Below are positions 38,030 through 42,032 of a stretch of DNA of 54,776 nucleotides, piece by piece. Source of the DNA: an uncultured Gammaproteobacteria bacterium. Its GTDB lineage: Bacteria; Patescibacteriota; Patescibacteriia; Patescibacteriales; UBA12465. The stretch covers positions 1-54,776 of the forward strand of contig CAYZMF010000001.1 in NCBI GenBank assembly GCA_964479455.1. The letters run 5' to 3'. The notes under the pieces are model-generated. The model did no database searches. It was not told the origin of the DNA and worked only from the letters and a program-made list of their open reading frames with translations. Numbering within the stretch: the stretch's first letter is position 1; each line of letters begins with the position of its first letter. The translations under genes and the position numbers were made by a program.

Positions 38030-38100
38030 TCGGGGTGCCGGGAATTGAACCCGGGCTACATGCACCCCATGCATGCGTACTACCGTTATACTACACCCCG
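38030..38100 (-). tRNA. tRNA-Pro (anticodon GGG)
   Basis: Reverse complement CGGGGTGTAGTATAACGGTAGTACGCATGCATGGGGTGCATGTAGCCCGGGTTCAATTCCCGGCACCCCGA. It has a C1:G72 pair, anticodon loop ATGGGGT and G37. Confidence 0.8.
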
Positions 38101-38416: not shown

Positions 38417-39406
38417 ATGATAAAAGATAAAATTATTTTTTCTGGCATCCAGCCAAGTGGAGAGCTCCATATTGGTCATTTTATAGGGGCTATTGATCTC
38501 TGGCTTGATTTGCAAAGGAATAACAATTGCTATTTCTCAATAGTTGATTATCACGCTATTACTGTTGATCAAAATCCAGCTGAGTTGAGAAAAAGAATTT
38601 TTGAAATTACTAAATTATATTTAGCCTTAGGTATCAATCCAGATAAATCAGTTATTTTTCAGCAATCACAAGTAGCAGCTCATACGGAATTAGCCTGGAT
38701 TTTAAATTGCCAAGCCACTTATATGTCAGATTTAAGGAAGATGACCCAATTTAAGGACAAAGGAGGCGATAGGCAGGAGGCAGTTTCAGTCGGCTTATTC
38801 AATTATCCAGTTTTAATGGCGGCTGATATTTTGCTTTATGATACTCAAATAGTGCCAGTTGGAGAAGACCAAAAACAACATGTTGAATTAGCTCGAGACA
38901 TTGCTAAAAGATTCAATCATAAATTTGGTCAAATATTTACTATCCCTGAGGCTCTAGTTAAGGAAGAGGGATCGAGAGTAATGAGTTTAAGTGACCCTCT
39001 AAAAAAAATGAGCAAAAGTGAAAAAAATGCTGATAGCTATATCGCCTTATTAGACAGCCCAGAACTGGCTAGAAAAAAAATTATGAAGGCAGTTACTGAT
39101 TCTGGCAGTGGAGTGTATTATATTCCTCATGAAAAACCAGCAATTTCTAACTTACTTTCAATTTATGCCTTTTTGGGTAATCGAGAGATAAAAAGGCTAG
39201 AAAAGGACTATCTAAATAGTGGTTACGGAAATTTTAAGAAAGATTTAGCTGAAGTGGTGCTTAGTTTTCTGAGTAAATTTCAAGAAAAATATAATCAAAT
39301 TAAAGATGATGATGTTTATGCCATTTTAAAAAATGGTCAAGAAAAAGCCGAGCAAAAGGCTAATTTAAAGCTAGAGACAGTAAAAAAGGGAATTGGAATT
39401 GCTTAG
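38417..39406 (+). CDS. trpS: Tryptophan--tRNA ligase
   Basis: GIQPSGELHIGHF (HIGH) and KMSKSEKN (KMSKS). Confidence 0.9.
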   Translation: MIKDKIIFSGIQPSGELHIGHFIGAIDLWLDLQRNNNCYFSIVDYHAITVDQNPAELRKRIFEITKLYLALGINPDKSVIFQQSQVAAHTELAWILNCQATYMSDLRKMTQFKDKGGDRQEAVSVGLFNYPVLMAADILLYDTQIVPVGEDQKQHVELARDIAKRFNHKFGQIFTIPEALVKEEGSRVMSLSDPLKKMSKSEKNADSYIALLDSPELARKKIMKAVTDSGSGVYYIPHEKPAISNLLSIYAFLGNREIKRLEKDYLNSGYGNFKKDLAEVVLSFLSKFQEKYNQIKDDDVYAILKNGQEKAEQKANLKLETVKKGIGIA

Positions 39407-39471: not shown

Positions 39472-39505
39472 AACAAACACCGAATAATGGTGTTTGTTGC
39501 TTTTT
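39472..39505. terminator. Bidirectional terminator between trpS and the 16S gene
   Basis: Perfect 10-bp stem AACAAACACC/GGTGTTTGTT with loop gaataat, followed by GCTTTTT on the plus strand. The minus-strand side is also T-rich. Confidence 0.75.
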
Positions 39506-39540
39506 GTGAAAATATTTCAAGTCTAATTGGCATCAATTCG
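39506..39540 (-). promoter_or_regulatory. 3' half of the pre-16S processing stem (partner at 41997-42032)
   Basis: CTAATTGGCATCAATTCG (39523-39540) is the exact reverse complement of CGAATTGATGCCAATTAG (41997-42014). The adjacent GTGAAAATATTTC / AAAATTATTTTCAC extends the helix. Confidence 0.6.
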
Positions 39541-39729
39541 TTCACTGTATAAAACAGTGTCGACTTGTGATCTTAATTAAAAAACCACATATCTCCCTAG
39601 AAAGGAGGTGATCCATCCACAGCTTCCGCTACGGATGCCTTGTTACGACTTAGTCCCTGTCATCGGTCTTACCTTATTCCCGTAAAAACGAGCTTTCGGG
39701 CACTACCAACTTCCTTGACTTGACGGGCG

Positions 39730-40572
39730 ATTATCTTCTTATAAACTTAAGAATTGATGTTCCCACTCAGCGAGCGGATTTCCCGCACTGAGCGAGCTCT
39801 AATGCATTTTCTGTTTTAAATGATATAATTTATTTAAACCAGACGATGTTAAGTGTTTTTTTAGGTTAATATCTTCCATTATTTGACAAAATATGTCAAA
39901 ATCTCTTTTTTACTAACAAATTTAACTGGATTTTCTTTAAAGAAGGGCATTACAACATCGTTTAAATGATTTCAATTTGAAACATCATAACGATAACAGT
40001 TTTTATGATTTACTCGATTATCTTTTTGTAGATAAACATTTCCACAGGCAAAATATTTTTCAAGCTGGTAAAGGATAATTTTATCCCCTTCCTGTAGCTT
40101 TACACAAAATTTTGGCTCTATTCTAACTCTTTGTTATCATAAACATAAATAGTAAAACTGCCTTCTCCGTCTATTAACCCAATTATATAATTTACATTAA
40201 ACATAAACATTAAAGTGATTCCTTCCTCTAATTAATAATTAAAGTACTATGAATCAGCTGACTTCTAATATAGTGTTAGTTTAATTATATCATTAATAAA
40301 ATTATTAATGAAGTCACTGATATTAGATCTCCCGGGGTTAATTAAATTTCCTTTCCCAACATCCTGAAACGATTTTTTTTGAATCTTCCCTAGGCTCACC
40401 ACCCAATCAAAGGTCGATTCTTCGTTCTATATCATCAGGCTATTGTTTGTTTTGAGATCCTCTGCTAATTTTCTCACGAAAATTAACTATCTTTCAACTA
40501 CGCTCCTTTATAGACAAAAAGGAGGAACGGATTTTAACCGTTTGGAAAAGTAATCTGCCCGGCGCAGATATT
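39730..40572 (-). mobile_element. Intron-like intervening sequence within the 16S gene (between the E. coli C1399 and C1400 equivalents)
   Basis: The flanks read ...CTTGTACTCAC | AATATCTGCGCCGGGCAGAT ... GAAGATAAT | CGCCCGTCAAGTC.... It has GC-rich terminal hairpins and an AT-rich centre carrying the LAGLIDADG remnant. Confidence 0.8.
39799..40210 (-). pseudogene. Degenerate single-motif LAGLIDADG homing endonuclease
   Basis: MFMFNVNYIIGLIDGEGSFTIYVYDNK.. is followed by a frameshift. The next segment is RIEPKFCVKLQEGDKIILYQLEKYFACGNVYLQKDNRVNHKNCYRYDVSN, then an in-frame TGA. NHLNDVVMPFFKENPVKFVS follows, then a second frameshift, then KKRDFDIFCQIMEDINLKKHLTSSGLNKLYHLKQKMH*. An SD, GAGGAAGGA, lies upstream. 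Confidence 0.75.
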
Positions 40573-40872
40573 GTGAGTACAAGACCCGAGAACGTATTCA
40601 CCGTGGCATAGCTGATCCACGATTACTAGCGATTCCAACTTCATGAGGTCGAGTTGCAGACCTCAATCCGAACTGAGAGAAATTTTCTGGGATTTGCTCC
40701 ACCTTACGGCTTGGCGTCCCTTTGTATTTCCCATTGTAGCACGTGTGTTGCCCAAGGTGTAAGAACCATGCTGATTTGACGTCATCCCACCTTCCTCCCA
40801 TTTAAAACGGGCAGTCTCCTATGACATATAAAACATAGGATCAGGGTTGCGCTCGTTTCCCGACTTAACGGT

Positions 40873-40909
<37 letters not shown>

Positions 40910-40989
40910 TCTGTCTAGCACCCTCGAAGGCGGATCTGTTTCCAGACCTTGCAGCTAGATGTCAAGCCTTGGTGAGGTTCTTCGCTTAT

Positions 40990-41034
<45 letters not shown>

Positions 41035-41879
41035 TATTCCTTTGAGTTTTAAGCTTGCGCTCGTACTCCCCAGGCGGGATACTTAACGGGTTACCTTAAA
41101 TTAACAACACTGGCAGGGTCGATACTGCCAATGTTTAGTATCCATCGTTTACAGCGTGGACTACTAGGGTATCTAATCCTATTTGCTCCCCACGCTTTCG
41201 TCCCTGAGTGTCAGAACTGTCCTAGCAAACTGCCTTCGCATTTGGTGTTCCTGCTGATATTAATGGATTTAACCCCTACACCAGCAATTCCGTTTGCCTC
41301 TTCCAGTCTCTAGTTTATCCATCTCTCCCGCTGCCCCAAGGTTAAGCCTTGGAATTTAACAGGAGATGCGATAAACAACCTACGGACGCTTTACGCCCAA
41401 TAAATCCGGATAACGCTCGGGGCCCTCGTATTACCGCTGCTGCTGGCACGAGGTTAGCAGCCCCTTATTCATCAGGTACCGTCATTGTTTCTTCCCTGAT
41501 AAAAGCACTTTACACCCCGAAGGGCTTCTTCATGCACGCGGCGTCGCTCCTTCAGACTTTCGTCCATTGAGGAAGATTCTCGACTGCAGCCTCCCGTAGG
41601 AGTCTGGGCAGTGTCTCAGTCCCAGTGAGGCGGATCATGCTCTCGCACCCGCTACCCGTCATAGCCTTGGTGAGCTTTTACCTCACCAACAAGCTGATAG
41701 GACATAGGCCCCTCCCAAGGCGCCGGAGCTTTAATAAATAGGCTTATGCTTATTTATACCATCGAGTATTATCCCACCTTTCGGTGGATTATCCTCGTCC
41801 TTGGGGTAGGTTACCAATGTGTTACTCTCCCGTTTGCCATGCCAATATTGCTATTAGCATTCGACTTGCATGCCTTAGA

Positions 41880-41919
<40 letters not shown>

Positions 41920-41996
41920 TTGTAAAAAAGTTTTTAATCAGGTGGCTCCTGAATATTTTAATCTGTTTAATTAAAAACAGATAATGTTTTGTTTTC

Positions 41997-42032
41997 CGAA
42001 TTGATGCCAATTAGCATCAAAATTATTTTCAC
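41997..42032 (-). promoter_or_regulatory. 5' half of the pre-16S processing stem (partner at 39506-39540)
   Basis: See the partner feature. There are 18 consecutive complementary nt plus an extension, bracketing the whole 16S gene as in RNase III processing helices. Confidence 0.6.

Follow-up and report, generated by a model that had tools for sequence, protein, structure and literature searches.

The locus described here raises the question of what kind of element interrupts a 16S rRNA gene at the decoding centre, and of how such an element might be removed from the transcript. Within the window—by which we mean the whole stretch of 54,776 nt that was analysed—an intervening sequence of 843 nt (39730-40572; this feature and all those given below are on the minus strand) directly follows the equivalent of 16S C1399 and directly precedes that of C1400: exon 1 ends in ...CTTGTACTCAC, the insert begins with AATATCTGCG... 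and ends in ...GAAGATAAT, and exon 2 opens with CGCCCGTCAAG. Exon 1 (40573-41922, 1350 nt, E. coli equivalents approximately 1-1399) was matched by the Rfam SSU_rRNA_bacteria model with 1337 bits (40543-41925), and exon 2 (39599-39729, 131 nt, E. coli equivalents approximately 1400-1542, comprising helices 44-45 and the anti-Shine-Dalgarno), when the 3' piece was searched alone, with 87 bits (39601-39735, model positions 1384-1533). Upon in-silico splicing the two exons yield 1481 nt, of which positions 3-1481 align with an uninterrupted metagenomic 16S gene (L163) at 92.2% identity, an end-to-end alignment of the spliced gene; the G+C content is 30.6% in the insert versus 50.0% in the exons. 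An earlier note on this DNA had claimed an insert of 843 nt at that position and a 16S rRNA of normal length upon joining the pieces, both of which claims are upheld by the SSU matches, the reading of the junctions, and the collinearity with uninterrupted genes. The comparison with relatives that it had proposed revealed that the empty junction GGTCTTGTACTCAC/CGCCCGTCA is carried by at least 120 metagenome contigs, and that the insert occurs at the identical junction in many independent assemblies (L001, L002, L005, L018, L023, L024, L030, and L031, among others). The insert is real, and is of a kind already described in the Candidate Phyla Radiation (CPR) and in giant sulfur bacteria.

Data from the literature indicate that inserts at about position 1400 of the CPR 16S gene, designated 16IS9, are group II-like and encode LAGLIDADG_1 proteins (Tsurumaki et al., 2024; PMC11270868). 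The present insert resembles them in host clade, gene, and site region, and likewise combines a single-domain LAGLIDADG_1 ORF and the lack of a reverse transcriptase with an RNA that Rfam models reveal as group II-like. It belongs to the CPR habit of carrying protein-encoding rRNA inserts, as had been proposed from the sequence. The accompanying statement that site and class were still in need of characterisation was accurate only in part: the class at 1400 had already been named, whereas the fold, the boundaries, and the mechanism are absent from that survey (PMC11270868), which pools all the inserts as "position 1400". Here, in contrast, the site is exactly 1399/1400, the reading frame has decayed, and the insertions of sister lineages are situated at 1396, 1398, and 1402/1403. 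What we add to the CPR survey are exact boundaries, a fold backed by covariation, and a pairing of EBS1 with IBS1 by which the 5' splice site can be assigned to a position ahead of a GUGYG-like motif.

We propose that the whole insert (39730-40572) represents a group II intron whose ribozyme is of IIC type (class C-like) and whose domain 4 houses a single-motif LAGLIDADG homing-endonuclease gene rather than one for a reverse transcriptase, and we assign to this reading a probability of about 0.87. The evidence that carries it is comparative. In an alignment of 17 homologous introns at the same site the RNAalifold consensus comprised the six domains D1-D6, with compensatory changes in 75 of 116 pairs; and the named structure whose helices are cited below contains 118 pairs, 75 with compensatory changes, 96.7% of its cells being paired, whereas slid controls gave 37-47%. 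For the same structure covariation scored 0.445, as compared with at most 0.097 in the controls, and none of 500 shuffles attained 0.445. The earlier note had considered the mechanism of excision unclear, an assessment that does not hold in view of a covariation-backed fold that identifies the RNA as a group II (IIC-type) ribozyme.

Domain 1 (40332-40562; helices 3-14) is closed by the basal stem CCGGG (40558-40562)/CCCGG (40332-40336), in which four of the five pairs exhibit compensatory changes, the variants in relatives being CACAG/CUGUG, CAUGG/CCAUG, and AUCGG/CCGAU. Domain 2 (40260-40331; helix 15) is followed by the conserved J2/3 element AGAAGUCAGCUGAU and then by domain 3 (40217-40255; helices 16-17). 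This region contains the match to the Rfam model group-II-D1D4-1 (RF01998; 40219-40292, 33.1 bits, E = 6e-4), which falls just short of the gathering cutoff of 35 and is also found in the homologues. The stem of domain 4 (39797-40215; helix 18) pairs 40210-40215 with 39797-39802 and holds the ORF in its loop. Domain 5 (39762-39796; helix 19) shows the triad CGC, including a G·U wobble, together with a two-nucleotide UC bulge and a GAAA-containing loop, this last being either GAAAU or a G·U-closed AAA and thus one base off the canonical tetraloop. Helix 19 is 100% paired, with nine invariant pairs and five with compensatory changes: its CUCG/UGGG base is invariant, with the G·U, and the compensatory pairs are located in the lower helix. 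In group II introns D5 is a hairpin of some 34 nt whose catalytic triad is AGC, or CGC in class C; our assignment of the triad and of the D2-D3 sequence to IIC leans partly on their likeness to the Oceanobacillus iheyensis intron. The D5/D6 model RF00029 had no match in the window at E values up to 10, and scored 21.4 bits in one homologue (L031).

Two other pairings had been suggested from the sequence. Of the GC-rich hairpins noted near the two ends of the insert, both sequences are present, and the 3' one is domain 5; the 5' one (ATCTGC..GCAGAT), for its part, exhibits no compensatory change and has four of its six pairs broken in 3-7 of the 17 sequences, its CCGGG loop forming instead one strand of the covarying D1 basal stem. 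The proposed pairing of the termini with each other (AAUAUC/GAUAAU) likewise failed on the 17-sequence alignment, since it has a single compensatory cell—a value within the shuffle range—and four of five pairs broken in 2-7 of the 17 sequences, and the nucleotides involved would be withdrawn from the basal part of D6, which covaries. Both candidates were rejected.

At the 5' end, the equivalent of the group II GUGYG motif is CUGCG (40563-40567), which sequence starts at intron nucleotide 6, that is, 5 nt inside the insert, so that the canonical configuration of a GUGYG directly at the splice site is not present in this intron; the first two nucleotides of the motif are variable, and only the GCG is invariant (alignment columns G18, C19, and G20). 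Between the splice site and the motif lies a 5' terminal linker, AAUAU (40568-40572), recognisable in the 17-intron alignment and in the relatives, where the linkers are A/U-rich and 5-39 nt long. Such a linker before a GUGYG-like motif is a known trait of LAGLIDADG IIC introns (PMC13190283), and Li et al. (2011), as that work is reported in PMC4424553, described introns that splice 1-33 nt ahead of GUGYG and have lost their branch site. We located EBS1 in the loop that caps one of the D1 stems (GUGAG, 40395-40399), complementary to IBS1 (CUCAC, 40573-40577), with which five bases exon 1 ends. By this pairing of GUGAG with CUCAC the 5' splice site is set right behind C1399, despite the position of the motif 5 nt downstream. 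Furthermore, EBS1 and IBS1 covary across six lineages or sites, the loop changing with the exon sequence at the insertion site: to the CUCAC/GUGAG of this intron (IBS1/EBS1) correspond CACAC/GUGUG in L046, ACACA/UGUGU in L037, L039, L041, and L044, ACUCA/UGAGU in L052, GUACA/UGUAC in the Thiotrichaceae introns L042 and L048, and ACCGC(C)/GGCGGU in the 1402/1403 lineage. As a separate observation, the RNAalifold consensus joined the exon CGC at 1400-1402 to the GCG of the intron, which pairing we omitted from the model because both sides are invariant.

At the other end, domain 6 (39733-39758; helix 20) carries an AA bulge on its 5' strand and has compensatory changes in seven of eight pairs; its 3' strand is paired throughout, and accordingly no bulged branch-point adenosine, which group II introns carry 7-8 nt from the 3' splice site, was found on that strand in the covarying fold of the 17 introns. 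The 3' tail AAU (39730-39732) completes the intron (...GAUAAU/C), whose terminal AU, present in nearly all the relatives, agrees with the AY rule; the last intron base is U, and the first base of exon 2 is C, in almost all lineages, a constancy that bears on the EBS3/IBS3 and gamma-gamma' contacts. The 5' linker together with a D6 that lacks a bulged branch adenosine suggest hydrolytic splicing, and the first step would probably be a hydrolysis and not the formation of a lariat, by analogy with what has been proposed for other branch-less, linker-bearing rRNA LAGLIDADG group II introns; the published cases indicate, nevertheless, that the loss of canonical D6 features need not mean hydrolysis (PMC13190283). 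As judged from sequence, the ribozyme would splice the pre-16S RNA so as to restore the canonical decoding centre, and exon ligation would generate the junction ...GUACUCAC-CGCCCGUCA.

The earlier note had also recognised a LAGLIDADG remnant in the insert, correctly so: a degenerate single-motif LAGLIDADG_1 homing-endonuclease gene lies inside D4 (39799-40210; Pfam PF00961, E = 4e-15). In comparison with L005 the reading frame contains a net loss of 19 nt at approximately 40136-40152, an in-frame TGA at 39972-39974, and a loss of 1 nt at 39912; with two frameshifts and one TGA the ORF is, on its sequence, a pseudogene. Reading the TGA by genetic code 4 or 25 was considered and rejected, because the long ORFs of the window read normally in code 11 and because this ORF has two frameshifts. 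Intact homologues of the endonuclease, of 141-143 aa and at best 75% identical, are abundant in Patescibacteria, and the ORF of the Thiomargarita nelsonii intron L048 (Thiotrichaceae) is 35.6% identical (E = 5e-21). Against the same L005, identity amounts to 94.8% and 100% in the ribozyme parts, whereas the ORF is 84.3% identical and contains indels; the ribozyme is thus better conserved than the ORF, which points to selection on the RNA. Copies of the intron that have no ORF measure 487 nt (L040), 511 nt (L038), and 404 nt (L021). We envisage that the endonuclease would have propagated the element as DNA, through homing into the unoccupied site GGTCTTGTACTCAC/CGCCCGTCA, and that with its endonuclease dead the present copy may now be an immobile, splicing-only resident, in which selection on 16S function would keep the ribozyme.

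An alternative would be that the insert is removed with no exon ligation, or is merely cleaved, the mature 16S rRNA then consisting of the fragments from approximately 1 to 1399 and from 1400 to the end, held together by the structure of the ribosome, as with the intervening sequences processed by RNase III. Bacteria with fragmented rRNAs are indeed known (PMC11270868), and a D6 devoid of a branch adenosine next to a non-canonical 5' end would fit such an arrangement; but D5, the J2/3-D3 region, the EBS1-IBS1 pairing, and the 3' AU against C1400 are all conserved with covariation, the terminal stem that an excision of the RNase III type would use has no comparative support, and the break would be situated in the decoding centre, so that we consider this possibility improbable. 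Very improbable is a non-functional 16S copy in which the intron has lost its splicing ability and is decaying: the pseudogenised endonuclease might point in that direction, but the exons score as a full and collinear 16S rRNA, the flanking processing stem is intact, the ribozyme is better conserved than the ORF, and the covarying helices stay paired in this intron.

That the insert might be a group I intron, or a ribozyme of a new class, could be argued from the LAGLIDADG genes that are typical of group I introns and from the circumstance that no Rfam intron model reached its gathering score on the insert. The Rfam models for group I, group II, and SSU rRNA that the earlier note had proposed to run gave, along with the strong SSU matches, no group I match at E values up to 10, and with group II the single sub-cutoff match cited above. 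In addition, the last exon base is C where a group I intron would be preceded by U, the last intron base is U where it would be G, and the covariation-backed fold has the six-domain architecture of group II, which findings leave that explanation with scarcely any probability. Of the contention that the boundaries fit neither intron class, then, the group I half stands—the boundary nucleotides are wrong and matches are missing—and the group II half falls before the IIC fold, the AU end, and the CUGCG. The thought that the junctions could be an assembly chimera arises from the many homologous contigs of just some 0.9-1 kb that break in the 16S exons; against it stand the same junction architecture in more than 15 independent assemblies as well as in long contigs, and the collinearity of the exons with genes that lack the intron, so that its probability is practically negligible.

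Among known systems, the group II intron proposed here comes close to the rns-1396 family of the Thiotrichaceae (Salman et al., 2012, as cited in PMC13190283 and PMC4424553), an IIC family characterised by a 5' linker, by an endonuclease encoded in DIV, and by the loss of EBS2 (Liu et al., 2026; PMC13190283). Both share the IIC backbone, a single-motif endonuclease in D4, homologous endonucleases, the linker before the GUGYG-like motif, a non-canonical D6, and similar group-II-D1D4-1 scores, the T. nelsonii intron with its 31.6 bits scoring no better than the 33.1 of the window; the Thiotrichaceae family differs in its site 3 nt upstream (after A1396), in its EBS1 (UGUAC as opposed to GUGAG), and in its hosts, which are Gammaproteobacteria and not CPR. 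Whereas Liu et al. (PMC13190283) described the bacterial family as confined to the Thiotrichaceae and to a single site, the present data extend bacterial LAGLIDADG group II introns to the Patescibacteria, where they are widespread. The fungal mitochondrial introns of Li et al. (2011), to the extent that PMC4424553 reports them, also reside in rRNA genes, mostly carry a LAGLIDADG ORF, splice upstream of GUGYG as set by IBS1-EBS1, and have lost the branch motif; they are, however, mitochondrial with a IIB1 backbone, and probably acquired these traits independently. With the canonical IIC intron O.i.I1 of O. iheyensis the present intron shares the D2-J2/3-D3 sequence AGAAGUCAGC.GA..CAUAGUA...GAAGG, the CGC-triad D5, and a compact D1, a likeness that we base on the group-II-D1D4-1 alignment and on the O. 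iheyensis sequence. Canonical IIC introns, in contrast, encode a reverse transcriptase or no ORF, are inserted after terminator hairpins, begin with GUGYG at the very splice site, and retain a bulged branch adenosine. Matches to a 21-nt D2/D3 pattern in Firmicutes and Bacteroidetes were considered as reverse transcriptase-encoding comparators, but occurred with neither a reverse transcriptase ORF nor a 16S context and look like chance; with some 17 matches to be expected by chance (18 specified bases, 596 Gb), they were left out.

We raise tentatively, and regard as rather doubtful, the idea that the linker-bearing IIC introns of the CPR and the Thiotrichaceae constitute one site-hopping radiation in which the 5' linker is the remnant of a captured class C target. 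Such introns would have hopped among neighbouring positions of the decoding centre, at least four in number (1396, 1398, 1399, and 1402/1403), re-tuning EBS1 together with the endonuclease. The linker would then represent what is left of a natural class C target, which comprises a hairpin and a short spacer resembling IBS1, and the mobile DNA unit would include, besides the intron, part of the 5' exon in which it formerly resided. In several lineages (L046, L012, L039, L058, and L059) the linker does consist of a hairpin and then 5-7 A-rich nucleotides directly before the GCG. Neither proposal is stated in the literature cited here on these introns; if true, the latter would explain the repeated origin of linkers in endonuclease-mobilised group II introns.

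These results leave unchanged what is known about the workings of elements of this kind. For the window itself, they lead to the annotation of an intact 16S gene interrupted by what would be a splicing-only group II intron. Annotation tools that halt at the insert lose 131 nt from the 3' end of the 16S gene, and the region of the universal 1392R/1406 primers is split by the insert.

The 16S rRNA gene on the minus strand is split, as the earlier note had proposed, by an insert of 843 nt (39730-40572; G+C 30.6%) between the equivalents of E. coli C1399 and C1400, the two exons (40573-41922 and 39599-39729) totalling 1481 nt with a G+C content of 50.0%. The Rfam SSU model matched 40543-41925 (-) with 1337 bits, which match gave out at ...CUUGUACUCA; and 39601-39735, when searched alone, matched the final 150 model positions with 87 bits (CGCCCGUCA...), that 3' piece covering helices 44-45 and the anti-Shine-Dalgarno end. 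The junctions read ...CTTGTACTCAC/AATATCTGCGCCGGGCAGAT...GAAGATAAT/CGCCCGTCAAG, and since the bases flanking each of them differ, the boundary of the insert cannot slide. The SSU matches, the collinearity of the spliced 16S with L163, a metagenomic 16S that has no interruption (92.2% over positions 3-1481), and the recurrence of the junctions bear out the split, and the site was found empty, as GGTCTTGTACTCAC/CGCCCGTCA, in at least 120 metagenome contigs. An assembly chimera of 16S and insert was ruled out because the same architecture occurs in many independent assemblies; the contigs that code for the closest endonucleases likewise have this insert, at the identical 16S junction, and their ORFs are intact.

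Over partial alignments, the exons share 93-97% identity with those of Patescibacteria loci that hold this intron, among them a Ca. Falkowbacteria MAG (L040). The gene lies between the arms of a 32-nt inverted repeat (39509-39540 with 41997-42028; 81% complementary), most likely the pre-16S processing stem. Next downstream comes a class I Trp/Tyr tRNA synthetase gene in convergent orientation, those surroundings comprising 38417-39406 (+) and 38030-38100 (-); and the rRNA genes are not linked, since neither a 23S nor a 5S gene was found after the 16S or at any other place in the 54.8 kb of the window. The window also holds five tRNA genes, at other places.

To ascertain the nature of the insert, we ran a permissive Rfam scan of 39500-40700, which check with intron models, suggested by the earlier note, returned a sole intron-type match: group-II-D1D4-1 at 40219-40292, with 33.1 bits (E 6e-4), just under the cutoff of 35 bits. 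That match covers nearly all the conserved unpaired nucleotides (AGAAGUCAGC.GA..CAUAGUA...GAAGG), and the same model is matched by homologous loci and, with 31.6 bits, by the 16S intron of Thiomargarita nelsonii. A scan for the D2/D3 pattern, with one genome per species, gave 54 loci, about 40 of them 16S-borne relatives, mostly of Patescibacteria; the remainder look like chance matches and were set aside.

When 17 distinct introns of the 1399 site were aligned, with the ORF removed and 10 nt of either exon retained, RNAalifold produced a six-domain fold in which 75 of 116 pairs were compensatory. In that structure 96.7% of the cells were paired, versus 37-47% with the partners slid by 1-3 columns; 75 pairs had changed on both sides, versus 19-29; and the covariation score was 0.445, versus at most 0.097, which observed values were reached in none of 500 shuffles. 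On the minus strand the fold comprises D1 (40332-40562), D2 (40260-40331), D3 (40217-40255), the D4 stem (40210-40215 with 39797-39802, enclosing the ORF), D5 (39762-39796), D6 (39733-39758), and a 3' tail AAU (39730-39732). The insert is thus a group II intron, and the earlier verdict that it fitted neither intron class does not hold.

The GC-rich hairpin noticed near the 3' end is real and corresponds to D5. In the alignment neither its base, CUCG/UGGG (with a G·U), nor its upper helix varies, while five pairs of the lower helix are compensatory (CUCAG/CUGAG, UCGCG/CGCGA, CCGUA/UACGG, CCGGA/UCCGG, CGUAG/CUACG); the 3' strand bears a 2-nt bulge, and the triad is CGC, not AGC, which replacement is a signature of class C. 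By contrast, the 5' hairpin ATCTGC..GCAGAT found no support in the 17 introns: its loop, CCGGG, pairs with CCCGG (40332-40336) to make the basal stem of D1, which covaries (CACAG/CUGUG, CAUGG/CCAUG, AUCGG/CCGAU). The suggested pairing of the insert termini likewise lacked support, being in competition with the covarying base of D6. In D6 seven of the eight pairs are compensatory and the 3' strand is paired without a break; since the sole bulge (AA) sits on the 5' strand, the domain has no canonical branch adenosine.

As to the boundaries, the objection that they break group II rules fails at the 3' end, where AAU fits the AY rule, and stands at the 5' end, where the equivalent of GUGYG, CUGCG, lies 5 nt inside (intron nt 6-10; GCG invariant, the two preceding bases variable), after the five A/U-rich bases AAUAU. 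RNAalifold also paired the invariant GCG (nt 8-10, 40563-40565) with CGC of exon 2 (39727-39729, positions 1400-1402), both sides of which pairing are invariant across the 1399 lineage.

One of the D1 stems ends in a loop that carries EBS1, GUGAG (40395-40399), the complement of the exon's five final bases, CUCAC. Sister introns of the IIC type, also with linkers, are found at no fewer than three other positions, all inside a 7-nt stretch of the 16S decoding-centre strand, and in every related lineage, at site 1399 as well as elsewhere, the EBS1 loop complements the end of that lineage's 5' exon: GUGUG to CACAC at site 1399 (L046); at site 1398, UGUGU to ACACA (L037, L039, L041, L044) and UGAGU to ACUCA (L052); UGUAC to GUACA at site 1396 in Thiotrichaceae (L042, L048); and GGCGGU to ACCGC(C) at site 1402/1403 (L008, L011-L013, L019, L021, L026-L028, L036, L047, L050, L058, L059). 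Because EBS1 both matches the exon end and varies in step with it, the ribozyme is made for cleavage between exon and linker, and splicing would give back the canonical 16S sequence. At 40576, the equivalent of E. coli A1396 and within the 1392-1406 universal primer site, the host 16S carries a U in place of A; that U pairs with the A of EBS1, but is not due to the intron, since at least 120 intron-less metagenomic 16S genes have it too.

The AT-rich core does encode the LAGLIDADG remnant that had been reported (LAGLIDADG_1; PF00961, E 4e-15), readable solely by joining three frames. Compared with its nearest intact relative (L005, encoding P0001, of 143 aa; 75% identity), the ORF has lost a net 19 nt at about 40136-40152 and a further 1 nt within an A-run at 39912, and CGA has become TGA at 39972-39974 (all on the minus strand). 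Recoding of the stop was rejected, because code 11 works normally for the rest of the window, so that the ORF is a pseudogene. A search of a protein collection found 490 homologues, nearly all of 141-145 aa, those bearing names being annotated as LAGLIDADG endonucleases of Patescibacteria. Many of the contigs coding for such proteins (P0001-P0120; loci L003-L005) measure only 0.9-1.0 kb and stop within the 16S exons; assembly breaks off at these conserved rRNA flanks, so that counts of such introns in MAGs are probably too low.

Beyond the demonstrated architecture, catalytic domain, exon-binding pairing, ORF decay, and empty sites, we infer that the intron would splice itself out of the pre-16S RNA, or do so with help from the host. 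Hydrolysis would probably be the first step, since that combination, a 5' linker and a lost branch motif, has been published as the mark of such introns (Li et al., 2011, as summarised in PMC4424553; PMC13190283), the formation of a lariat or circle being a possible alternative. The element may have spread through LAGLIDADG-mediated homing into the empty site and would now be immobile in this genome. Selection on the intron RNA is visible: the ribozyme is 94.8% (5' part) and 100% (3' part) identical to that of L005, and the ORF 84.3%, plus indels.

The insert belongs to an already known kind of intron, and the association of protein-encoding 16S inserts with the CPR was well founded. Tsurumaki et al. 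2024 (PMC11270868) described 53 group II-like CPR rRNA inserts, only at 16S position 1400 (16IS9), of which 39 code for LAGLIDADG proteins (at that position chiefly of the LAGLIDADG_1 family) and none for a reverse transcriptase; the sole endonuclease assayed there, I-ShaI, belongs to a group I-like insert of the 23S. Liu et al. 2026 (PMC13190283) defined the bacterial IIC "rns-1396" family, reported solely from Thiotrichaceae, whose introns carry a 5' terminal linker, lack EBS2, and have a single-motif endonuclease in DIV. The present intron RNA has hallmarks in common with the Thiotrichaceae intron, and the endonucleases are homologous. What we add is an explicit fold with boundaries for the CPR introns, the covariation of EBS1 with the site, and the recognition that "position 1400", under which the CPR survey lumps sites 1396, 1398, 1399, and 1402/1403, is at least four adjacent sites.

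Among the relatives the linker measures 5-39 nt, with a hairpin in some; it reaches 20-39 nt in several lineages (L046, intron nt 1-39; L012, L008, L027, L026, L039, L044, L058, L059), the long linkers having a hairpin and then 5-7 A-rich bases directly 5' of the GCG motif, an arrangement similar to what ordinary class C introns have as their target, a hairpin plus IBS1. In L036 (Ca. Woykebacteria), of the 1402 lineage, a 23S_rRNA_IVP gene (PF05635, E 6e-29), about 100-475 nt downstream of the D2/D3 motif, replaces the LAGLIDADG gene in D4. Copies of 404-511 nt without an ORF (L040, 487 nt, in which the final endonuclease codons are retained; L038, 511 nt; L021, 404 nt) appear to be natural minimal ribozymes, which would suit splicing assays well. 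The D1 periphery evidently tolerates insertions; an extra hairpin occurs just past the basal stems in L038, L043, and L045, the insertion in L045 being of roughly 170 nt.
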